From Spirochaetia bacterium (GTDB lineage: Bacteria > Spirochaetota > Spirochaetia > CADAEX01): a stretch of 64,000 nucleotides of DNA. Both the position numbers and the translations under genes were made by a program. Where the stretch lies: positions 928,001 through 992,000 of the forward strand of contig OY759746.1 of assembly GCA_963662795.1 (NCBI GenBank), written 5' to 3'. Shown here piece after piece: positions 178 to 8,972 of the stretch. The notes beneath the pieces were generated by a model. It did no database searches. It saw only the letters and a list, made by a program, of their open reading frames with translations, and had not been told where the DNA came from. Numbering within the stretch: position 1 is the first letter of the stretch; every line of letters starts with the position of its first letter.

Positions 178-939
178 TCAGGCAGGATCTGGATGTTCCT
201 GCCAGTATTTCTTTACATCATGAATAAGCGCGTCCATGTGCTTTATCAGGCTCTTTTCAGCTTTTCTGCTGTCATGCTCACAGAGAGCTTCATATATCTC
301 ACGGTGATTTCTCAAATAGCTGCCGGAAGCTTTTTTCCTCATATACTCAAACAGCTCAGACTGCTGCCCAAGCCGTGAAATAATCAGATATATCTGTGAG
401 AGGATTTCATTTCTTGAGGCTGATGCAATAAGTGAATGAAACTCGATATCAAGAGAGGAGATACTTTCCTCTTTTTTTATATGTGCTTCCCGCACTTCAA
501 GAAGTTCCTTAAGCCTTGAAAGCTCTTCCTCAGTAATATTTTTTGCCGCAAGTTTCACAGTGGCTGATTCAATAATTCTCCTTGTTTCAAGAATCATTAT
601 AAAGGTTTTAAGAGTTTTTGAGCCAAGCATATTATCCAGTTCACTGCGGAGATTATTAACATGATTTCTTTCAAGGGCTTCACGCATCGCATTTTTTCCG
701 CTTGGAGTAATGATTCTTCCCTTATTTCTATCCTTTGTAAGATATCCCTTCCACTCAAGACTATTCAGTATTCGCCCGATACTTGCCTGGCTGATATTTA
801 TTCCCTGATCTTCAATAATTTCAGTGAGGTTGCCTGAACCTATAGGGCTGTCAAGATTCTGAAGTATCTGTAATATTAAAATCTCTTTTTCCCCGGTTAT
901 GCCTTTTCTGTTTGAAGACCGGGAAATTTTACGTGTCAT
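178..939 (-). CDS. FCD-domain (FadR/GntR-like) transcriptional regulator with an HrcA/NrpR-like N-terminal winged helix
   Basis: N-terminal ISQASIGRILNSLEWKGYL wHTH; C-terminal FCD motifs ETRRIIES, DIEFHSLIASASRN, HREIYEAL; ATGA overlap with the upstream aldolase gene. Confidence 0.85.
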   Translation of the reverse strand: MTRKISRSSNRKGITGEKEILILQILQNLDSPIGSGNLTEIIEDQGINISQASIGRILNSLEWKGYLTKDRNKGRIITPSGKNAMREALERNHVNNLRSELDNMLGSKTLKTFIMILETRRIIESATVKLAAKNITEEELSRLKELLEVREAHIKKEESISSLDIEFHSLIASASRNEILSQIYLIISRLGQQSELFEYMRKKASGSYLRNHREIYEALCEHDSRKAEKSLIKHMDALIHDVKKYWQEHPDPA

Positions 940-1619
940 GCATTACTCTTATTGTCATATTTTTTTGTATAATATACCCATTCACTTGTGGGTTTGTGTA
1001 TTTTAAGGTCATCCTGCCTAAGCGGTTCCGGCGTTCCTTTCATCGACGCGTACAGCATGATCCTGGCGTTTGTCTCAAGGGCAAAAGCGTTGACCGCCGC
1101 TTCTTCTACAGTTGCCCCGACAGTGACAATACCATGTCCCCGGAGCATCAGGCCTTTGCGGTCCTGAATTGCATCAGCTGTCGATTTTCCTTTTTCTTCT
1201 GTATCAATCTGCCCTGCATAATCAAGAACGGGGACATCCGGAAAAAACTGCGCCGCCCTGTAATATACAGGGAACATCGGTTTTCTGTCAATGCTGCATG
1301 CTATACAGTATTCCGGATGACCATGGACTATAGCCATTACATCAGGTCTTGCTTTATAAATTTCCGTATGGATAAAAAGCTCGCCCGGGGGCTCATACTT
1401 TCCTTCTATTGTTTTTCCTGATTTATCCATTAGAATAATATCATCTTCAGTAATCTGATCAAGAGTTTTATGTTCCTTATGCGCATGCCCCAGTATTACG
1501 ATGTTTCCGGATTCCTTGTCCCTGAAGCTGACGTGACCAACCATCAAGGTCAGTATTCCGCCCCCGGAGAGTGTCCGCACAGCCTGTGCAATTTCTTTTT
1601 TCTTTTCAAGTAGATTCAT
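936..1619 (-). CDS. class II aldolase/adducin family metalloenzyme (possibly a decarboxylase)
   Basis: GHVSFR, PPGELFIHTEIYKARPDV-x-AIVHGHP and LRGHG motifs; ATG at 1619 follows an AAGGA RBS (ORF track extends to 1637). Confidence 0.85.
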   Translation of the reverse strand: MNLLEKKKEIAQAVRTLSGGGILTLMVGHVSFRDKESGNIVILGHAHKEHKTLDQITEDDIILMDKSGKTIEGKYEPPGELFIHTEIYKARPDVMAIVHGHPEYCIACSIDRKPMFPVYYRAAQFFPDVPVLDYAGQIDTEEKGKSTADAIQDRKGLMLRGHGIVTVGATVEEAAVNAFALETNARIMLYASMKGTPEPLRQDDLKIHKPTSEWVYYTKKYDNKSNA

Positions 1620-1645
1620 TGTATTTATTCCTTTCACTTACAAAA

Positions 1646-3142
1646 TTATCCTATCTTGTGAATAATATTTTTACCCTTTTTTTTAACAAATACCGGAATA
1701 AAAATAACAAGCAAAATAAGACATATAATTACAAGATTGATATATCCGGTAATAAAAGTCGTATATGAGCCGTCAGAGATCATTATCGCACGCATAAAAT
1801 TCTTCTCTGCCAGCGGGCCCAGAATAACAGCCATTAAAAGAGGAATAATCGGATAACTTAATCTTCTCATGGCATAGGCAACCAATCCTATTAAAACGGC
1901 AGCTACAACCTCGGCAGGGTTATTGTGAAGGGCAAATGCGCCTGTGGCGGCAAAAAGCCAAATGAGCGGAATAAGAGTGTTGATCGGTACCAGGGTAATT
2001 TTAGCAAAAAATCCGGCTAGACTTAATCCCGCAATCCAGAAAGAAACCTGCGCAAGTATCAATGCAATAAACAGAATACCGACAAGAGATGGATTATTCA
2101 TAAACAGATCTTTGCCGGGGGAAATCCCGTACATCATCAGCCCTGCAAGAAAAACAGCGGAATCAGAGTTCCCGGGTATTCCAAGCGTCAACGCCGGAAT
2201 AAGCGCCCCACCCTGTACTGCGTTGTTTGCTGTCTCGGCTGCTACAAGCCCCTCAGCTGAACCATTGTTGAAAAGTTCAGGATATTTTGCCGACCTTTCA
2301 GCCTCACCATAGGCTACAACCGATGCCGCACTTGTACCAATACCGGGAGCAAATCCAAACAGTGTGCCGATTGCAGCTGATTTTATTAAGTGTCTCCAGT
2401 TTTTAAAAGTTAAAACAATCCCTTCCATATATGAACCGCTGATATCATTTACCTTGCTGATAGAGCAGGAGGTTTCCGATAAAAATGCGAAAACCTGGGC
2501 AACAGCAAAAAGTCCGATAACTACGACCAGAAAAGGGATACCATCCGTCAGATAGTCAATTCCGAATGTATACCTGATTTCCCCCGATATTATGTCATAC
2601 CCTACAAAACTGATCATTAGACCTAAACCGGCGGCAATAATTCCTTTTACTGTTGAGCCCTTGATAGTGGCAGAGATCATCACAAGACCGAATACTGTAA
2701 GCATAAAATATTCAGAAGGCCCGAACTTCATTGCAAAAGCTGCCAGAGGGGGGGCAAAAATAATCAGACAGAGTACTCCGGCAATACCCCCGATCATCGA
2801 AGATGTGGCGCACATTGCAAGAGCGGCTTTTGCCTTACCTGCACGGGCCATGGGAAAACCTTCAATCGCGGTAACAACATTTGCACCTGTTCCGGGAGTA
2901 TTTATCAGTACCGAGCTTATTGAACCTCCATATACTGCGGCAGCCCATGCAGCGACAAGAGTAATCAATCCCTGTTCCTTGGGGAAAAAAAACGTTACAG
3001 GAATCAGCAGCGCCATGGTAAGACTTGCTCCAATTCCAGGGAGAATTCCCGCGGTAATGCCGATTATTGTTCCGGTAAAAAACCAGATAATATTAATCGG
3101 AGTTAAAATTGTAAGAAGTGAATCAAATAGAATCTCAATCAT
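1646..3142 (-). CDS. tctA: tripartite tricarboxylate transporter large permease TctA
   Basis: GILPGIG, YGGSISSVLINTPGT, ETANNA and PALTLGIPG motifs; about 12 hydrophobic segments. Confidence 0.93.
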   Translation of the reverse strand: MIEILFDSLLTILTPINIIWFFTGTIIGITAGILPGIGASLTMALLIPVTFFFPKEQGLITLVAAWAAAVYGGSISSVLINTPGTGANVVTAIEGFPMARAGKAKAALAMCATSSMIGGIAGVLCLIIFAPPLAAFAMKFGPSEYFMLTVFGLVMISATIKGSTVKGIIAAGLGLMISFVGYDIISGEIRYTFGIDYLTDGIPFLVVVIGLFAVAQVFAFLSETSCSISKVNDISGSYMEGIVLTFKNWRHLIKSAAIGTLFGFAPGIGTSAASVVAYGEAERSAKYPELFNNGSAEGLVAAETANNAVQGGALIPALTLGIPGNSDSAVFLAGLMMYGISPGKDLFMNNPSLVGILFIALILAQVSFWIAGLSLAGFFAKITLVPINTLIPLIWLFAATGAFALHNNPAEVVAAVLIGLVAYAMRRLSYPIIPLLMAVILGPLAEKNFMRAIMISDGSYTTFITGYINLVIICLILLVIFIPVFVKKKGKNIIHKIG

Positions 3143-3154
3143 TTTAGTACTCCT

Positions 3155-3643
3155 TTATAACAGATTCTGAAGGATTCCGGCAGGAAGCGGCACTCCGAGG
3201 AAAGTACCGAATACCCAGTATAGCCCCAATGTCAGAAGAACAGCAGATATAATCAATGCTCTCTTGTTTTTAGCACCCAGGAAATAACCCATTCCGACAG
3301 TTACAATGATTGAGGATATTATAAAACCTGCGATATGCCACAATACAACTGTCATGACCATGAAGGTTAAAGTGATCATGATTTCTTTAACCGGAATTTT
3401 TGACCTCTCTTTTGCAGTATTATCAGATACTCCTGATGTCATTCTATTTTTTCTTTCTGCCGCAGCCATTACCAGGCAGTCAATTAAAATAAAAACAAGG
3501 GTAACTGATCCTATCAAAAGAGGCAGTCTTGCAGCCCGCTCGCTCAAATTAAAAGAATTTAAAAAAATCAGAATCACAAACCCGGCAATAAACATGTCAA
3601 AATAGAATGCACCTGCCTTTTTACCGAAAATTTTATTTGTCAT
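3155..3643 (-). CDS. tctB: tripartite tricarboxylate transporter small subunit TctB
   Basis: 4-5 TM segments, C-terminal VFGTFLGVPLPAG; lies between tctC and tctA. Confidence 0.88.
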   Translation of the reverse strand: MTNKIFGKKAGAFYFDMFIAGFVILIFLNSFNLSERAARLPLLIGSVTLVFILIDCLVMAAAERKNRMTSGVSDNTAKERSKIPVKEIMITLTFMVMTVVLWHIAGFIISSIIVTVGMGYFLGAKNKRALIISAVLLTLGLYWVFGTFLGVPLPAGILQNLL

Positions 3644-3673
3644 CTATACTCCTTTGCTGTAATGGTAAAGGGA

Positions 3674-3703
3674 CGGGTATGGACTTATTAAGATCCATAC
3701 CCG
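3674..3703 (-). other. intercistronic stem-loop after tctC (mRNA stabiliser or partial terminator)
   Basis: CGGGTATGGA-N10-TCCATACCCG, a perfect 10-bp stem between the binding-protein and membrane genes. Confidence 0.6.
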
Positions 3704-3714
3704 CGCAAAACAAC

Positions 3715-4755
3715 CTATTTAGCGGTTTTTAACAGGTCAAGAACTGAATTGATGCTGTCATAATCTTCCATGGTTGTGCTTAAGAACTCTTCCGAGCTTA
3801 AAGGCTCAACAAGAATGGAGGTTCTCTCCGCCCATGCCAGAAATTCCTTGTCCTGGCATGCCTTAAGAATAACCTTTTCGTATTTTTTCTGAATTTCTTT
3901 CGGTGTCCCTGGAGGAGCCCATGCTCCGACTCCGTAGGGAATTACAACACCTTTATAGCCGAGTTCAAGCATGGTAGGTGTATCAGGAAGCATTCTGCTC
4001 CTTTTCGGGCCGTGTATAGCTACAGTTTTAACATCACCCTGTTTTTCATATCTTGCAGAACTTGACACAGGCATGAGACCGAAATCGACATGTCCACCGA
4101 TTACTGCATTGGCAACTTCAGCAGTACTGTCAAAGGGGATAAAATCAGCATTCATTTTTACTTTTTCCCTTAAAAATACAGCCTGCAACTGAGAGGTTGA
4201 ACCAAGTCCGCCCCCTCCGGCCGCTTTAAGTTTCTTTGTTTTGCCTGCTTCCATAAGATCATTAAAACTCTTATAAGGCGATTTTGATGAGACAAGCACA
4301 GTCCGGTAATCTCCTCCAAGCCAAGCACCGAGGTGGACAAATTCCTTCATTGAATATTTTGATTCAGGATAAAGAAGCTCTCCTATCAGCCGTGATGGAA
4401 ACGCTGATACAACTATTGTGTATCCGTCTGGAGCGGCCGCAAATGCTTCCTGCATTGCTCTTCTGCCGCCCTGTCCTTCAAGGTTTTCAGGAACAACAGG
4501 AATACCGAACTCTTTTTCAAAATAAGGGGCCATTGCTCTGGCCGGTAAATCAACGCTTCCGCCTACACCATGTGTAATTATAAGCCGGATTCTTTTCCCG
4601 CTTTCGGGCCACTGCATTTCAGCAGGAGCAGCAGAAGCAGTTTTTGCGTCTCCTGCAGCCGGACCCTCTTTCTTACCGCCTGCTGAAACAGGCAGACAGA
4701 TTACAACAGCAAGTAATAGTGCTGCTAAAATCAGGACAACTGACTTTTTTTTCAT
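3715..4755 (-). CDS. tctC: tripartite tricarboxylate transporter substrate-binding protein (TctC/Bug family)
   Basis: Signal peptide, GGSVDLPAR, ENLEGQGG, APDGYT, LPDTPTMLELGY and APPGTP motifs. Confidence 0.9.
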   Translation of the reverse strand: MKKKSVVLILAALLLAVVICLPVSAGGKKEGPAAGDAKTASAAPAEMQWPESGKRIRLIITHGVGGSVDLPARAMAPYFEKEFGIPVVPENLEGQGGRRAMQEAFAAAPDGYTIVVSAFPSRLIGELLYPESKYSMKEFVHLGAWLGGDYRTVLVSSKSPYKSFNDLMEAGKTKKLKAAGGGGLGSTSQLQAVFLREKVKMNADFIPFDSTAEVANAVIGGHVDFGLMPVSSSARYEKQGDVKTVAIHGPKRSRMLPDTPTMLELGYKGVVIPYGVGAWAPPGTPKEIQKKYEKVILKACQDKEFLAWAERTSILVEPLSSEEFLSTTMEDYDSINSVLDLLKTAK

Positions 4756-4817
4756 AAATGAACTCCTTGTTTAACAAAAATAGACCGCAACGCGGTTTAA
4801 GATAAATATACTTAGTA

Positions 4818-5858
4818 TCAATTCCATTGCGCCATCGGAACAGTAAGCAACGGAGGATCAGGAAGATGCTTAAGAGCAATTCCCCTGATTTTTTCAACTT
4901 CCTCATATCTGTTTTCTTCCATCAGCAAATCAAGATCCATTATTACTTTCTTTATTGTATCCGCATCACGGTAGGCAATCTTGCAGACCTGAACACCGGA
5001 AGCTCCGGCCATTATTGCCTCGAGAACGTCTTCTCCGGTTTCAATCCCGCCTGAACATACAAGAGGAATATCTGTCTGTTTTGCAAGATATGCCGTATGA
5101 AGAATTGTGCTGGGCTTTACTGTACCAGTGACCATCGGAGAAATCGGCATCTTTTTTTCGATCATCACTCTCAGGTTTCCCGGTAGAAGCGGTTCTCCTG
5201 TCGCAACATTAATTTTAAGATTGGGAAGTCTCCCCCCGACAAAACTGATGGCATCAGGTTTTGCTTTTGAAACTATCGCTGTAAAAAACTGGCGGTTTAA
5301 GAGTTTCTCAAGCGGGAGTTTTGCCCACACAGGAATTCTAAGTACCTTTTTCATTCCTGTTATGAGTTCAATTGCCCTTTCTGATTCTGATGACCACCAT
5401 TTACCAACCTGGGCATAATCTTCCCCCAGATGAGGCCCTGAAGAAGGACAGACCATATTAAGCTCTACAGCATCCGCTCCTGCTTCTTCATATTTTTTTG
5501 CTATTACAATCATCTCTTCCATTGTGTTGGCAGTAAAGCTTCCAATGATTTTGGAATTCTGCTTCCTTGAAAGCTCCTTCATCTCTGAAACAGCAATTGC
5601 CATTTTGTCAATTCCGGGATTTTTCAGCGCCTCAGCTCCGCTCAGGAGTTTCTTTTCTTTGGGATCATACCAGAACACAGTAGGCTTTGGAGCGCCCGGA
5701 AGCGCTTTGGTAGTTACTGTTTTAGTTACAATTGCTCCATATCCGCGGATGAGATGCTGCTCAATACCTTTCGCTGTACTTGTGTATCCGGCAGAGGCAA
5801 GGATTAAAGGATTTTTCAACACAAGTCCGCCGAAATTTATATTCATGTTTCCCATCAT
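4818..5858 (-). CDS. dihydroorotate dehydrogenase / dihydropyrimidine dehydrogenase-like FMN oxidoreductase (divergent)
   Basis: LKNPLILASA, KTVT, ELNMVCP, PVWAKL, SGGIETGED and MAGASGVQV motifs of the DHOD TIM-barrel family; no C-terminal ferredoxin domain. Confidence 0.8.
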   Translation of the reverse strand: MMGNMNINFGGLVLKNPLILASAGYTSTAKGIEQHLIRGYGAIVTKTVTTKALPGAPKPTVFWYDPKEKKLLSGAEALKNPGIDKMAIAVSEMKELSRKQNSKIIGSFTANTMEEMIVIAKKYEEAGADAVELNMVCPSSGPHLGEDYAQVGKWWSSESERAIELITGMKKVLRIPVWAKLPLEKLLNRQFFTAIVSKAKPDAISFVGGRLPNLKINVATGEPLLPGNLRVMIEKKMPISPMVTGTVKPSTILHTAYLAKQTDIPLVCSGGIETGEDVLEAIMAGASGVQVCKIAYRDADTIKKVIMDLDLLMEENRYEEVEKIRGIALKHLPDPPLLTVPMAQWN

Positions 5859-5861
5859 TTC

Positions 5862-7253
5862 CTACCTTGATGCCGGTACAAACACGCCGTACCCCGGCTT
5901 TCCGATAACTTTTTCATCTTTCATTACAACAGTTCCCCTGACAACAGTATGAACCGGAACACCTTTCACTTTTCTCCCCTCAAACGGACTGTACCCCGCA
6001 CGGCTGTATGCATCATCCTTTGTAAGTATTTTTTCCCTGTTTAGGTCAACAATTGCAAAATCAGCATCTGCTCCAGGCTGGATAACACCTTTTCTCGGCC
6101 AGAAGCCGAACCTCTTTGCCGGAATTTCCGAACCCAGCTCTACAATTCTTTCAAGGGTGATCTTTCCCTCATTATAGGCATTAAGAAAAAGAGCAAGATA
6201 ATCCTGTACATAGGGAGCTCCGCCATGCGCTTTCCACATATCTTTCCAGCCCACCTCTTTCTCATCTATATGATGCGGCGCATGGTCTGTGCCCCAGAAT
6301 GCGGGGAAGGGAAGTTCTTTACTCTGAACAACATCCCAGAGAGCTTTCTGGTCTTTTGGAGGAGTCAGGGTTCCAAGAACATAAGGACCCCGTTTTTTAA
6401 CATCATCCATTGTTATAAAAAAATGAGGCGGATTCATTTCGCAGGAAAGGTCTACACCGTCATTGTAATACCACTCAGCCATTTTTGTTCCCAGATAAGT
6501 ATTTAAATGGAGGAGATTAAGTTTTACCTTAGAAGCGCGCGCCATTATAAAAAGGGTGGCAAAGGCTGTATCATATACAATCGAATCAGCATAGCGGAGT
6601 GCATTAACATAATCTTCCGGCCCGGTGAGCCCTTTTTCCCAGAAATACCTTTTTTCAATCCATTCAAAAAGTTCCTGATTGTGAGGATGTACAGCGCATA
6701 TCGCATTATTTCTTTCGCAGGCCTGAAATATTTCATACAGGTGGCCATAGCTGAGTATTCCAAGTTCAGGCATATGGGGATAGCTTCTTTTTGTGTCATT
6801 CATCATAAAAACCTTTATCCCAATGACTCCCTCACCCATTATTTTATCGACTTCCCTTAAATCAGCGGGAGGACCGATCCAGTGATTAAAATCAATCAGT
6901 GATTTGGTCGCGGCAAGAGCTTTATGCTCTACCGTTCTTTCCCAGGAATTAGTGGAAGGTTTTACATTCGGCATATCAACAGCAAGGGTTACTCCCCCTG
7001 CCGCCGCCGCCTGAGTTGCGGAAGTAATATCCTCTTTATGGGTAAATCCCGGTTCTCTCATGTGTACATGGGTATCTATAAGGCCAGGCAGAACATGCAG
7101 GCCAGATGCATCGATAACAGAATCCGCCTGAATGTCTTCCGCTGAATTAAGTATCGCCTCAACCTTTCCTCCGGTTACTCCTATGTGAACCTTTATAAAA
7201 TCGCCATTGGTATAGACCATACCGTTTTTCACAAGCAGGTCGTAATTCTTCAT
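5862..7253 (-). CDS. dihydroorotase/allantoinase-family cyclic amidohydrolase
   Basis: PGLIDTHVHMREPG, AAAAGGVT-x-x-DMPN, GIKVFM, TDHAPH, GADAD and YSPFEG motifs. Confidence 0.9.
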   Translation of the reverse strand: MKNYDLLVKNGMVYTNGDFIKVHIGVTGGKVEAILNSAEDIQADSVIDASGLHVLPGLIDTHVHMREPGFTHKEDITSATQAAAAGGVTLAVDMPNVKPSTNSWERTVEHKALAATKSLIDFNHWIGPPADLREVDKIMGEGVIGIKVFMMNDTKRSYPHMPELGILSYGHLYEIFQACERNNAICAVHPHNQELFEWIEKRYFWEKGLTGPEDYVNALRYADSIVYDTAFATLFIMARASKVKLNLLHLNTYLGTKMAEWYYNDGVDLSCEMNPPHFFITMDDVKKRGPYVLGTLTPPKDQKALWDVVQSKELPFPAFWGTDHAPHHIDEKEVGWKDMWKAHGGAPYVQDYLALFLNAYNEGKITLERIVELGSEIPAKRFGFWPRKGVIQPGADADFAIVDLNREKILTKDDAYSRAGYSPFEGRKVKGVPVHTVVRGTVVMKDEKVIGKPGYGVFVPASR

Positions 7254-7284
7254 AATAAAGTACTCCTTGAATAATTATTGTAGT

Positions 7285-7323
7285 TTCTTTATCACTACTC
7301 ATCTTATGAGTAGTGATAAAGAA
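7285..7323. promoter_or_regulatory. perfect 18-bp inverted repeat, putative repressor operator
   Basis: TTCTTTATCACTACTCAT-CTT-ATGAGTAGTGATAAAGAA, immediately downstream of the -10 box of the catabolic operon. Confidence 0.75.
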
Positions 7324-7351
7324 TGATAAAACAGGATATCACGTCTGTCAA
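7323..7351 (-). promoter_or_regulatory. sigma70-type promoter of the amidohydrolase operon
   Basis: Minus strand TTGACA (7351-7346), 17-nt spacer, TATCAT (7328-7323); AAGGAG RBS before the ATG at 7253. Confidence 0.75.
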
Positions 7352-7367
7352 GTTTTTTTTTAGGCTT

Positions 7368-8372
7368 TCAATGCGGAAGTGAAGAGAAAAAGATCAAAAA
7401 TACCGGAAGGAGCAGAACATACAATATATAGGTAACCAGAAGAACGTAGGCTGTCAAATCTTCATTAATGCCTGCGTCCATTGCCATTGTCGACAGGTTG
7501 TTCGCCGGCGGGATATGGAATTCAAGAAACAGGACAAAGATAATAGTTTTATCCAGATTGATGTGGCTCAGTACAAGAAAATATAAAAGATAAAAAATGG
7601 CAGGCATTATTAAATAATGAACAGCTGCTACTCCTGCGAGCACCAGGTTCATCTGTTTCTTGACTGATGAGTGAAGCCTAATGCCTGCAATCATTGCCCC
7701 CAGGTTTACAAGGATAAGGGGCGTAAGCACAGAACCGAGTCTCTCAAGAGCTTTATAGATATAGACAACCGGCAAAGCCGGATCAAAGACAAAATTCTGA
7801 AGATTTAAAAGAGGTATCAAAAGTCCCGCCATAATACCGTATAACGAAGGAGACAGGAGTTCCTTAAATGAAAATTTCACATTGCTGCGGGCTATCAGAA
7901 AGTTGCCGAACGACCACAGAAGCGGGCTGTAGATAAAAAGATAAACACCTATAAAGACTATTGCTTTTTCGAAATTATAGACAGAAGCAATCAAAGGCAT
8001 TGTAAGAGGCAGTATTTCAAGCAGGGAAAGAGGAATATATCCGGCATTGCCGAATGAGCTTAACGCAAGAGCGGCCCTTTTTTCCTTTAAGGGAAGAGAT
8101 ATAAACCTGAATATGATAGATGCAAACAATATTGATATAGCTGGAACTGCTATTGCAGCAATAGGCATGAAAAGAGAGCCTTTCAGAAAAGTGATATCAG
8201 CTTTTCCCATGTTTGCAAAAAAATAAACAGGAAGGGCAACCTTAACAAGAAAACCGCTCAGGGATTTCTGGAAATTCCCGTTTACTAGGCCGGTACGCCT
8301 GATTATAAATCCAAGGCCGATAAGGACAATAAACTGTATAGAGGTGTAAAAACCGGGGATAAGATACTGCAA
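7368..8372 (-). CDS. AEC (auxin efflux carrier / malate permease) family transporter
   Basis: About 10 TM segments; VALP, FGNAGYIPL, SPSLYG and PPA crossover motifs. Confidence 0.85.
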   Translation of the reverse strand: MQYLIPGFYTSIQFIVLIGLGFIIRRTGLVNGNFQKSLSGFLVKVALPVYFFANMGKADITFLKGSLFMPIAAIAVPAISILFASIIFRFISLPLKEKRAALALSSFGNAGYIPLSLLEILPLTMPLIASVYNFEKAIVFIGVYLFIYSPLLWSFGNFLIARSNVKFSFKELLSPSLYGIMAGLLIPLLNLQNFVFDPALPVVYIYKALERLGSVLTPLILVNLGAMIAGIRLHSSVKKQMNLVLAGVAAVHYLIMPAIFYLLYFLVLSHINLDKTIIFVLFLEFHIPPANNLSTMAMDAGINEDLTAYVLLVTYILYVLLLPVFLIFFSSLPH

Positions 8373-8384
8373 TGCCGGTTCCGC

Positions 8385-8972
8385 CTATTCCTTAATCACT
8401 TCAAGGGCTGCAAGCGGATTATGGTGATGCATCCTGTCTTTTACGGCAAAAACCGTAAATGGTTTTTCCAGATATTTATGAAAAAGGATATCATGGCCCA
8501 GGCATAGTCCCATCTCAATAACAAGGTCTGCGCTGCCGCTGTTAAGATCAAGGGCCTGTCCGATTGGATTGCAGTTTACTCCTCCTTTGAGAGAAGGGCT
8601 TATATCTGATTCCTTTATTCCGTTTATTGTGCACCTGCAGGAGGATACGGCAAGTGAGTTTTCTTCAAGAATGTCTTTTAATTTTACCGCTTCCTTCTCC
8701 ATGGAATAACAGTATGCAAGGGCGACTTCAGCATACCCCTGTGCCCTGCAGAATTCTATAATCTCTTCAAGCCTTGAAAGAGTGCCTGCCCTGCCGCCTG
8801 AGACAAGGCTGTCCGCGTTCTCATATAATTTTACAGTTCCGGGAGCCTCATATTCACTCAGAACAGGGCCCCTGCCCCGGTTGCAGTCCGCTCCCGATTT
8901 TTTACATGCTTTAGAATTACAGCTCAAACAATCCATGGGAATCAGTTTCCAATATATACCGATTTTTATCAA
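8385..8972 (-). CDS. DUF1847 family Cys-rich putative metal-binding protein
   Basis: RLEEIIEF, ALAYC, CNPIGQA, GLCLGHD, VKDR and HNPL motifs; TTG start with AGGAGG RBS. Confidence 0.85.
   Translation of the reverse strand: MIKIGIYWKLIPMDCLSCNSKACKKSGADCNRGRGPVLSEYEAPGTVKLYENADSLVSGGRAGTLSRLEEIIEFCRAQGYAEVALAYCYSMEKEAVKLKDILEENSLAVSSCRCTINGIKESDISPSLKGGVNCNPIGQALDLNSGSADLVIEMGLCLGHDILFHKYLEKPFTVFAVKDRMHHHNPLAALEVIKE

Follow-up and report, generated by a model that had tools for sequence, protein, structure and literature searches.

What is the function of an operon whose three enzymes carry the database names dihydroorotase, dihydroorotate dehydrogenase and fuculose-phosphate aldolase, and which also encodes a carboxylate importer and a transcription regulator? 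Such an operon lies at the left end of a 64,000-nt stretch of the genome of a Spirochaetia bacterium (GCA_963662795.1, contig OY759746.1, positions 928,001 to 992,000), which we call the window and whose positions serve as coordinates below; the genome (G000) is a single 3.93-Mb contig (C1). Our data show that the operon is real, conserved and regulated, and the comparisons below suggest that the three database names are mis-annotations. We consider it likely that the operon is a reductive, lactam-opening catabolic module, and we favour, with rather less confidence, its reading as an inducible operon for the breakdown of an imported heterocyclic acid, a carboxylate whose ring amide (lactam) is alpha,beta-unsaturated.

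The open reading frame (ORF) listing of the window contains seven ORFs from 178 to 7253, all on the minus strand, and Pfam assigns each of them to a family with a score above its cut-off. In the order of reading they encode a cyclic amidohydrolase, a flavoprotein resembling dihydroorotate dehydrogenase (DHOD), the TctC, TctB and TctA proteins of a tripartite tricarboxylate transporter (TTT), a class II aldolase-fold enzyme and an FCD-domain regulator (Table 1), which confirms the gene content, order and common orientation given in the original prediction, an account made from the sequence of the window. The gaps between them are 3, 62, 71, 12, 8 and -4 nt, the regulator's start overlapping the aldolase stop by 4 nt, and this spacing is compatible with a single transcript; a short hairpin followed by a T-run in the 62-nt gap is not conserved and is possibly a partial terminator or processing site. 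The transporter is complete, with all three components encoded together, each above its Pfam cut-off, and the relatives of TctC in the PDB are all TTT/Bug binding proteins (53-95 bits), none of them close. The regulator has an FCD domain, and its N-terminal part matches the winged-helix model HTH_12 and not the canonical GntR model (PF00392).

Pyrimidine biosynthesis was rejected as an explanation. The genome has a pyrK-pyrD pair beside carA-carB at 0.67 Mb, whose PyrD scores 329 bits (cut-off 269), and a dimer-type (E. coli-type) pyrC at C1:2.92 Mb, with 333.5 bits against a cut-off of 292.95 (TIGR00856). The operon enzymes fall far below such cut-offs, and no pyr genes neighbour the operon. 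The operon enzymes are thus not the sole PyrC and PyrD of the genome, and the earlier statement that the operon does not serve biosynthesis is borne out. A third DHO_dh-family gene, distinct from both PyrD and the operon protein, is found at G000:C1:3343009-3343857 (L008; 329-aa frame, 39.6 bits on PF01180) and might be of the PRK07565 or 'X2' type.

We used the curated cut-offs of NCBIfam as a test of family membership for the three operon enzymes, and none of the three reached any of them. The amidohydrolase scores 270 bits on the allantoinase model (cut-off 631), 265.8 on PRK09060 (482), 251.8 on PRK07575 (529), 237 on D-hydantoinase/dihydropyrimidinase (393), 228.8 on TIGR00857 pyrC_multi (279.05) and 203 on ErtD (650). 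Its top PDB match is the L-hydantoinase 1gkr, at 240 bits versus 155 for dihydroorotase, and enamidase is not among the 60 solved chains listed as its matches. Its substrate-contact motifs match those of the dihydroorotase 2gwn (HVHMREPGFTHKED versus QVHFREPGLTHKAT, DMPN versus DMPN, and TDHAPH..EKE versus TDHAPH..EKE), the first of them being an HxHxREPGxTHK motif of dihydroorotase type, and allantoinase and both hydantoinases (1gkr, 3hm7 and 1k1d compared) differ from it at the three motifs. Nine residues (H62, H64, R66, N96, K147, H189, H249, D323 and H327) are invariant among 24 relatives, and the protein has both the ligands of a binuclear metal centre and the Arg, Asn and His of HxHxR, MPN and DHAPH. 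In dihydroorotase this Arg/Asn/His triad binds the carboxylate of dihydroorotate. Because R66, N96 and H327 form the same triad, the most likely substrate of the amidohydrolase is a saturated six-membered lactam with a carboxylate, and we propose that the enzyme is a ring-opening lactamase. Its family comprises 38 proteins at 53% identity or more, followed by a step to 48% or less. The wider relatives (36-49% identity; at least 596 confirmed stretches) were rejected as a guide to the operon: in 79 of their loci no partner of the DHOD-like, aldolase or FCD kind was found, and the neighbours vary, including CobW, TctC, ABC transporters, molybdenum hydroxylases and luciferase-like monooxygenases. 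For this operon, only the clade at 53% identity or more is informative.

The flavoprotein reaches 132.5 bits on the PyrD model PRK07259 (cut-off 269), 125 on TIGR01037 (270), 94 on PRK07565 (303) and 91.3 on PreA (335). When aligned with the genome's own PyrD, it retains the lysine of the flavin mononucleotide (FMN) site (K46) and the catalytic cysteine (C137), and both are invariant. Four asparagines of DHOD hold the pyrimidine ring, and three of them do so in dihydropyrimidine dehydrogenase (DPD). In the genome's own PyrD these asparagines stand in the motifs MLN, ELN, CPN and GNT; the flavoprotein keeps only that of ELN (N134) and has G74, S139 and G209 at the other three positions. R210, directly after G209, is invariant in the five closest sequences. 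After the Cys loop come nine extra residues, GPHLGxxYA, and further along the chain there is another insert, of about 10 residues. The first and fourth asparagines are also lost in about ten of the nearest 50%-identity clusters, and both return in clusters at about 30% identity. Because three of the four ring-holding asparagines are gone, the pocket would no longer read a uracil-type ring, if the roles given above for these residues are right. No ORF for a partner resembling PyrK, PreT or PydX is found in or beside the operon, and the flavoprotein is therefore probably self-sufficient, like class 1A enzymes. We propose that it is an ene-reductase acting on a C=C bond next to a ring carbonyl. 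Such proteins are rare: among 1.84 billion representatives, one cluster matches at 60% identity (480 bits), the next reaches 230 bits, and only 17 reach E<=1e-30. The ESM Atlas places it only among generic DHO_dh clusters, whose automatically assigned names are PreA-like ('dihydrouracil dehydrogenase (NAD+)', for example).

The aldolase-fold protein is equally distant from named families, scoring 118 bits on PRK06208 (cut-off 255), 106.5 on PhtC (200), 50 on OtnC (250), 65-80 on FucA models (264-400) and 48-56 on AraD models (257-389). Its predicted metal ligands E86, H105, H107 and H168, one Glu and three His, are invariant in our alignment. The genome also encodes an OtnC paralog, and that protein's motifs GNIS, PTNS and PTKE, positions that we take, by FucA, to be phosphate contacts, are replaced in the operon protein's clade by GHVSxR, LGHxH and PPGE. 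GHVSxR is common to this clade and PhtC-like proteins, and the closest proteins outside the orthogroup (P0150 and P0182) fall just short of the PhtC cut-off of 200, at 195 and 189.6 bits. Solved relatives include 'Decarboxylase NovR' and Mlr6791, the latter described in part of PMC11841055 as the Mn-dependent hydroxypyridine-dicarboxylate decarboxylase HMPDdc. Twenty-four full-length proteins make up the orthogroup, at 50-82% identity, after which identity drops to 38% or less, and wherever context is visible its genes belong to this cluster. The best reading of these comparisons is that the protein is a metal-dependent decarboxylase of a non-phosphorylated acid. The active-site motifs of the enzymes had been called atypical, and this applies to the DHOD-like and aldolase-fold proteins and not to the amidohydrolase, whose motifs are dihydroorotase-typical. 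The OtnC paralog itself (254.6 bits, cut-off 250) is encoded beside OtnK (387, cut-off 350) at G000:C1:3732271-3734153 (L152:1483-3365), a gene pair that indicates a catabolic route for tetronates, four-carbon acid sugars, in this genome.

In a protein-guided scan of one genome per species, we identified the amidohydrolase at 67-80% identity in four other genomes: a Syntrophus sp. (L001), two Spirochaetaceae (L002 and L003) and a member of the Peptostreptococcaceae (L004; genome G004). The DHOD-like gene (50-59% identity) directly follows it in all four; counted over the five genome loci compared, the two genes adjoin in 4 of 5. The full order of amidohydrolase, flavoprotein, TctC, TctB, TctA and aldolase recurs in the Syntrophus locus, which has a PAS-LuxR regulator and an acyl-CoA dehydrogenase upstream, and in the Peptostreptococcaceae locus, with an added isochorismatase-family gene after the flavoprotein gene and a LacI regulator. 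The two Spirochaetaceae loci contain amidohydrolase, flavoprotein and FCD regulator and no aldolase. Since both the pair and the full order are kept across different phyla, this is not a chance grouping of genes, and the conservation of the gene set, which the original prediction had named as a check on itself, comes out in its favour. A metagenome scan returned 23 contigs with a flavoprotein at 38% identity or more. Among the 24 loci examined there, the amidohydrolase gene lies directly upstream of the flavoprotein gene in six and is separated from it only by TAXI-TRAP transporter genes in three more; the remaining contigs mostly span no more than a few kb. In all, the pair is present on at least nine metagenome contigs, and the importers found with it are all of carboxylate types, TTT or TAXI-TRAP.

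The module is rare and patchy, as is typical of accessory catabolism. Searches of genome contigs with flavoprotein and aldolase alignments at 45% identity or more returned only the same four genomes (two for the aldolase), counts that rest on short patterns and are a lower bound. Flavoprotein orthologues (E<=1e-40) were sought in 400 other genomes sampled from the window's phylum and in 399 others scored from the class to which the Peptostreptococcaceae genome belongs, and none was found in either set.

The genes around flavoprotein relatives may give clues to the chemistry of the operon. Molybdenum hydroxylases of the xanthine dehydrogenase (XDH) family are encoded in L003 and L119, adjacent to or divergent from the pair, and in L121, L127 and L133; aldehyde:ferredoxin oxidoreductases in L131 and L133; CN-hydrolase amidases in L124 and L131; isochorismatase-family amidases in L004 and L127; M20 and M19 peptidases in L120; an oxaloacetate-decarboxylase-type Na+ pump in L124; and enoyl-CoA hydratases in L128 and L130. 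The L119 hydroxylase is below every curated cut-off. Its best solved match is 4-hydroxybenzoyl-CoA reductase (301 bits), and against the two split subunits of the Eubacterium barkeri nicotinate dehydrogenase it scores 182.6 and 141.5 bits. One CN-hydrolase of the sister loci matches best the deaminated-glutathione/omega-amidase model (173 bits, cut-off 355), and the isochorismatase-family protein of L004 has weak best matches to biuret amidohydrolase (50.6 bits) and RutB (42 bits). With these additional amidases, molybdenum hydroxylases or aldehyde oxidoreductases in sister loci, and with no gene in the operon to handle the ring-opened product, the earlier description of the operon as self-contained is not supported. 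In L124, whose flavoprotein relative has 48% identity, positions 5359-8595 encode a double CN-hydrolase, a DUF401 membrane protein, a YheO-type regulator and every subunit of the Na+ pump (gamma, biotin carrier, beta, alpha); the pump may represent energy-conserving decarboxylation tied to the same or a related pathway.

Across five genomes, the distribution of the hydroxylase and the aldolase hints at complementarity. None of the three genomes with aldolase and TTT genes (the window's, Syntrophus and Peptostreptococcaceae) has a match to the L119 hydroxylase at E<=1e-20. In the two Spirochaetaceae, whose best aldolase matches (28% and 38% identity) are not orthologues, XDH-family matches number 7 and 10, and one of these adjoins the pair at 71% identity. 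Hydroxylase and decarboxylase may thus be alternative feeds to one reductase/lactamase core; alternatively, the decarboxylase may act once the ring is open, and other organisms may have a different solution for that step. Two of these matches contain in-frame stops, the L170 hydroxylase match (G002:C11:55427-58054) one TGA and one TAG and the L158 aldolase match (G004:C24:20056-20730) one TAG, which probably mark gene boundaries within the match (an upstream 2Fe-2S gene and an N-terminal overhang, respectively). For nine flanking ORFs of sister loci, homologues were found neither in the window nor among the other loci.

The window's own genome encodes a single XDH-family enzyme, at G000:C1:3568592-3572013 (L166:9592-13013), with a 699-aa molybdenum subunit alongside 2Fe-2S and FAD subunits. 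Immediately upstream of it are a LoaP-type antiterminator and PseB/PseC-like sugar-modification genes, and it adjoins a fused TRAP permease. This enzyme is very divergent, with at most 112 bits on any curated model and no match to the L119 hydroxylase at E<=1e-20. Searching the genome, we found no aldehyde:ferredoxin oxidoreductase, carbamate kinase or M20 carbamoylase above cut-off; it has four CN-hydrolases and a single acyl-CoA dehydrogenase homologue. This inventory of downstream enzymes does not discriminate between the rival readings weighed below.

Upstream of the amidohydrolase gene we found the promoter that the original prediction had described, TTGACA and TATCAT separated by 17 nt (7351-7346 and 7328-7323), which matches the consensus at 11 of 12 positions. 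The consensus match means little when taken alone, with 24 promoter-like sites in 9.2 kb versus 18.9 +/- 4.5 in shuffled sequence. The promoter is credible because it lies 70 nt upstream of the first ATG, which is preceded by an AAGGAG ribosome-binding site, and because the same layout recurs in five related loci. A perfect palindrome of two 18-nt arms, TTCTTTATCACTACTCAT-AAG-ATGAGTAGTGATAAAGAA, abuts the -10 box. In L114, L115, L116, L119 and L003, TTGACA, a -10-like box and then a palindrome with an ACTCA/TGAGT core likewise precede the orthologous first gene. Its arms are 17 nt long in L114 and 18 nt in L115, and imperfect versions were identified by eye in L116, L119 and L003; the shared core is (G)CTACTCA, a few nt, TGAGTAG(C). 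FCD homologues are present in the window, L002, L003, L117 and L119, that is, wherever the contig extends far enough, and in the latter four they follow the flavoprotein gene and have 40-41% identity. The palindrome is not found in L001, L004 or L122, loci with other or no visible regulators. These patterns make the palindrome a probable, candidate operator of the FCD regulator, and we infer that the FCD protein represses the promoter through it, with the substrate or an intermediate releasing repression. A second promoter-like site that also matches at 11 of 12 positions (TTGACA, 18 nt, TATATT) lies at 1262-1291 on the minus strand, within the aldolase gene and about 320 nt upstream of the regulator's start, and could give the regulator its own basal transcription.

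Masked bases (N) occupy L002:7814-7914, directly upstream of the amidohydrolase gene, making promoter and operator unreadable there. Separately, a leader element some 30 nt long, CGGTGC(A/T)GCC(C/G/T)GGAAGGT(A/G/T)(T/C)CCGG, is common to three loci, at L119:7498-7550, L116:479-530 and L002:7915-7960. It lies between the operator and the amidohydrolase start codon and can fold as a nested hairpin, shows no covariation (0 of 12 pairs, from three sequences only), and is not found in the window or its genome. Rfam at gathering threshold gave no matches over nine related loci.

Together, these results suggest the following mechanism. When no ligand is present, the FCD regulator would sit on the palindrome abutting the -10 box and block the promoter. 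The acid would be taken up by TctCBA. The DHOD-like enzyme would then reduce the C=C beside the ring carbonyl, with FMN donating the hydride and Cys137 the proton, and the binuclear-metal amidohydrolase would open the ring amide of the resulting saturated lactam, with Arg66, Asn96 and His327 holding the substrate carboxylate. The PhtC-like, aldolase-fold metalloenzyme would remove a carboxyl group via a metal-stabilised enolate. Its substrate would be a beta-oxo acid if this step follows ring opening, or a hydroxy-dicarboxylate precursor if it precedes the reduction. The original prediction of uptake, ring redox, ring opening and probable decarboxylation is thus supported as a reading, and its description of the substrate as orotate-like is weakened, given that three of the four PyrD asparagines are lost and that relatives lie beside XDH-family hydroxylases, which orotate does not need.

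What ring does the operon act on? Because the flavoprotein pocket is altered and because molybdenum hydroxylases, aldehyde oxidoreductases and omega-amidase-like CN-hydrolases occur near relatives, we favour a pyridine-type over a pyrimidine-type ring, and we put a pyridone-type substrate, a hydroxypyridine carboxylate, at slightly less than an even chance. Among known chemistries, the route of nicotinate breakdown through tetrahydro-6-oxonicotinate (THON) fits best by analogy. In that route, as set out in PMC3511419 and PMC9304392, 6-hydroxynicotinate is reduced to tetrahydro-6-oxonicotinate, which is hydrolysed to 2-formylglutarate and ammonia. By analogy, 2-formylglutarate, a beta-oxo acid, could suit a metal-enolate decarboxylase of this fold, and a candidate route would run from 6-hydroxynicotinate to tetrahydro-6-oxonicotinate, then to 2-formylglutarate and NH3, and on to glutarate semialdehyde and CO2. 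In Azorhizobium a later decarboxylation to the glutarate level reportedly takes place, a finding ascribed to Kitts et al. in 1992. Within that class 6-hydroxynicotinate is our first candidate, although as the specific substrate it is doubtful. A little less doubtful, and still improbable, is a wider proposal of an anaerobic pyridone-acid pathway in which the pyrimidine-biosynthesis enzyme pair and a PhtC-like decarboxylase were recruited to pyridine catabolism, non-orthologous to the E. barkeri enzymes, spread horizontally in Spirochaetes, Syntrophia and Clostridia, and entered via a molybdenum hydroxylase or a decarboxylase.

Several points weigh against this picture. The dihydroorotase-type triad would suit dihydroorotate or a 4-carboxy-2-pyridone no less well than tetrahydro-6-oxonicotinate, in which the carboxylate is displaced by one ring atom relative to dihydroorotate. 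The weak resemblance of the L004 isochorismatase-family protein to BiuH and RutB, enzymes of ureido compounds, points to a pyrimidine-like ring. The window's genome has no close molybdenum hydroxylase, and the substrate would therefore be an already hydroxylated acid and not nicotinate itself. With no aldehyde:ferredoxin oxidoreductase and one acyl-CoA dehydrogenase homologue, that genome also has little machinery for a glutarate-level product. Finally, the genes around the more distant flavoproteins (38-51% identity) may serve different pathways, and the complementarity of hydroxylase and aldolase rests on five genomes only.

We weighed four other explanations. Fermentation of orotate or a close pyrimidine carboxylate as in Clostridium oroticum, with import by TctCBA, DHOD-like reduction to dihydroorotate, opening to N-carbamoyl-aspartate, and release of aspartate, NH3 and CO2 by enzymes encoded elsewhere, is in our judgement unlikely. 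It would explain why both enzymes belong to the PyrC and PyrD superfamilies, why the amidohydrolase has the dihydroorotase motifs REPGxTHK, DMPN and TDHAPH, and why the flavoprotein retains the catalytic Cys and Lys; sister loci also encode possible N-carbamoyl amidases (the isochorismatase-family proteins with weak BiuH/RutB matches, CN-hydrolases, an M20 peptidase), and the Na+ pump of one of them would fit a step from aspartate to oxaloacetate. However, three of the four asparagines are replaced and two insertions remodel the loop after the catalytic Cys, an electron-transfer partner of PyrK or PreT type is missing from the operon, the route leaves the aldolase-fold decarboxylase without a function, the molybdenum hydroxylases and aldehyde oxidoreductases beside relatives are needless for orotate, and the genome lacks a carbamate kinase or M20 carbamoylase above cut-off. 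We regard as quite improbable a substrate that is an unsaturated, carboxylated cyclic imide or hydantoin, such as citrazinate, 2-hydroxyisonicotinate, a carboxy-maleimide from tetrapyrrole breakdown or 5-carboxymethylidene-hydantoin, to be processed by C=C reduction, imidase- or hydantoinase-type opening and an amidase encoded elsewhere. A carboxylate on the beta carbon, as in orotate, would account for the dihydroorotase-type residues together with the altered ring recognition of the flavoprotein. The closest solved relative of the amidohydrolase, an L-hydantoinase, points the same way, as do the amidases of the sister loci and the wider amidohydrolase relatives (36-49%), whose loci in Blastocatellia and Chloroflexia (L034, L053) also contain molybdenum hydroxylases, luciferase-like monooxygenases and FCD regulators. 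Against it, the literature that we searched documents no anaerobic route for these compounds, and the aldolase-fold enzyme would have no clear role.

A pathway in which decarboxylation comes first, for example of 5-carboxyuracil to uracil by the aldolase-fold enzyme, with the flavoprotein and amidohydrolase then acting as DPD and dihydropyrimidinase, seems very improbable. In the reactions of PhtC and of HMPDdc, an enzyme of the pyridoxine pathway, the carboxyl group that is lost stands ortho to a hydroxyl or oxo substituent of the ring. The nearest outgroup of the aldolase-fold protein is PhtC-like, the relationship of HMPDdc to this fold is stated in part of PMC11841055, CN-hydrolase and M20 proteins of sister loci could be beta-ureidopropionases, and the ESM Atlas neighbours of the flavoprotein carry dihydrouracil dehydrogenase names. 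Yet loci that have no aldolase keep a similar pair (amidohydrolase at 79-81% identity, flavoprotein at 57-59%) together with carboxylate importers, and the substrate of the pair is therefore probably still carboxylated. Moreover, the amidohydrolase motifs are of the carboxylate-binding dihydroorotase type and not of the dihydropyrimidinase/hydantoinase type, the flavoprotein lacks the asparagine set of which DPD keeps three members, and its PreA score is only 91 bits against a cut-off of 335. Least credible, to the point that we give it hardly any weight, is a spare or alternative pair for pyrimidine biosynthesis or salvage, a second PyrC and PyrD that would convert imported carbamoyl-aspartate or dihydroorotate to orotate. 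Superfamily membership and the dihydroorotase-type motifs agree with such a role, but separate pyrK-pyrD and pyrC genes of this genome exceed the curated cut-offs that the operon proteins miss by far, the genes of the pair are linked to those for an FCD repressor, for carboxylate import and for a decarboxylase-like protein, and the absence of orthologues from the 400 and 399 genomes sampled in the two groups is a spread typical of accessory catabolism. A catabolic operon for an imported, unsaturated lactam carboxylate is thus the reading that we carry forward.

Table 1. Features of the operon (window positions; scores in bits).
Feature	Positions	Strand	Details
-35 hexamer TTGACA	7346..7351	-	Sequence read and promoter scan
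-10 hexamer TATCAT	7323..7328	-	17-nt spacer; TTGACA-TATCAT matches consensus 11/12
Palindrome, candidate operator	7285..7323	-	Perfect, 18+3+18 nt; abuts -10 box
Ribosome-binding site AAGGAG	7263..7268	-	9 nt before ATG at 7253
Cyclic amidohydrolase, 463 aa	5862..7253	-	Pfam Amidohydro_1 82; dihydroorotase/hydantoinase/allantoinase superfamily
Stand-alone class-1 DHOD-like flavoprotein, 346 aa	4818..5858	-	Pfam DHO_dh 103
Terminator-like short GC hairpin (5 pairs) and T-run	4784..4796	-	Flavoprotein/tctC gap
TctC solute-binding protein, 346 aa	3715..4755	-	Pfam TctC 113.7
TctB small membrane subunit, 162 aa	3155..3643	-	Pfam TctB 50.4
TctA large membrane subunit, 498 aa	1646..3142	-	Pfam TctA 426.9
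Class II aldolase/adducin-fold metalloenzyme, 233 aa	936..1637	-	Pfam Aldolase_II 132
FCD-domain transcription regulator, 253 aa	178..939	-	Pfam FCD 84; N-terminal winged helix HTH_12 36

On its two sides the operon is bordered by other genes. A pyrroline-5-carboxylate (P5C) reductase gene converges on its 3' end. Upstream, genes for an AEC-family (Mem_trans) transporter and a DUF1847 protein (7368-8972, minus strand) end 17 nt before the -35 box; they are absent from every related locus that we examined and therefore probably form a separate unit.

The chemistry proposed for the operon is already anticipated by pyrimidine and nicotinate catabolism and should surprise a specialist only moderately. 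At the level of genes, however, knowledge of how strict anaerobes break down N-heterocyclic acids (vitamin B3 derivatives, spore dipicolinate, tryptophan-derived pyridine acids) is scant, with the E. barkeri nicotinate cluster as the main exception. The operon offers a compact, testable set for such work: an importer with its binding protein, a putative ligand-sensing repressor with a predicted operator, and three soluble enzymes of small, unstudied subfamilies. Identifying the substrate would correct the database annotations and reveal how a DHOD pocket is re-tuned, and the operon could supply heterocycle chemistry with an ene-reductase and a lactamase that work as a pair and independently of oxygen.

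In line with the original prediction, our search of the full-text literature (mostly openly accessible, with the supplements of Barba et al. 2013 outside its scope) found no described pathway with this gene set. Barba et al. 2013 (PMC4016543) describe uncharacterised 'X1/X2' dehydrogenases of the DHOD/DPD superfamily whose genes adjoin those of cyclic amidohydrolases and xanthine dehydrogenases, and read them as purine- or pyrimidine-like catabolism. There, X1 neighbours hyuA, ygeW, ygeY, ssnA and carbamate kinase genes, none of which is present at the operon.

Likened by its chemistry to the nicotinate THON route of E. barkeri and Azorhizobium caulinodans, the operon would follow the same logic: hydroxylation to a 2-pyridone carboxylate by a molybdenum hydroxylase, reduction of the C=C beside the carbonyl, lactam hydrolysis with loss of NH3 and, in Azorhizobium, decarboxylation to the glutarate level. 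Sister loci L003 and L119 carry XDH-family hydroxylase genes directly beside the pair. In contrast, the reductase here is a DHO_dh-family flavoprotein, the ring opener is a 463-aa protein of the dihydroorotase/hydantoinase type, and the operon in the window contains no hydroxylase. With reductive pyrimidine catabolism (DPD or PreT/PreA, dihydropyrimidinase, beta-ureidopropionase) the operon shares the superfamilies of the pair and the order of reactions. Unlike that pathway, it has no PreT/PydX partner, beta-ureidopropionase or hydantoinase-type motifs and includes a carboxylate importer and a decarboxylase-like enzyme, with its proteins at 91 bits on PreA (cut-off 335) and 237 on dihydropyrimidinase (393).

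Orotate fermentation in C. oroticum uses an NADH orotate reductase, which is a class 1B DHOD, together with dihydroorotase and ureidosuccinase, and the literature that we searched contained no paper on the genes of this route. An imported carboxylate, DHOD-family reduction and dihydroorotase-family opening are common to both systems, and the dihydroorotase motifs are kept here. The operon differs in having no PyrK-like subunit and no ureidosuccinase, in the loss of three PyrD asparagines and the gain of two insertions in the flavoprotein, and in the extra aldolase-fold enzyme. That enzyme has its fold and its metal site of one Glu and three His in common with PhtC, HMPDdc (PDB 2z7b) and OtnC, and the GHVSxR motif in common with PhtC-like proteins. 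It scores well below the PhtC and OtnC cut-offs (106.5 versus 200 and 50 versus 250) and belongs to its own orthogroup of 24 full-length members. HMPDdc demonstrates that this fold can decarboxylate a hydroxypyridine dicarboxylate, as stated in part of PMC11841055. Taken together, these comparisons suggest that the chemistry of the operon is the reductive and hydrolytic opening of a heterocyclic lactam acid, by enzymes that stand outside the tested families of pyrimidine catabolism and orotate fermentation.

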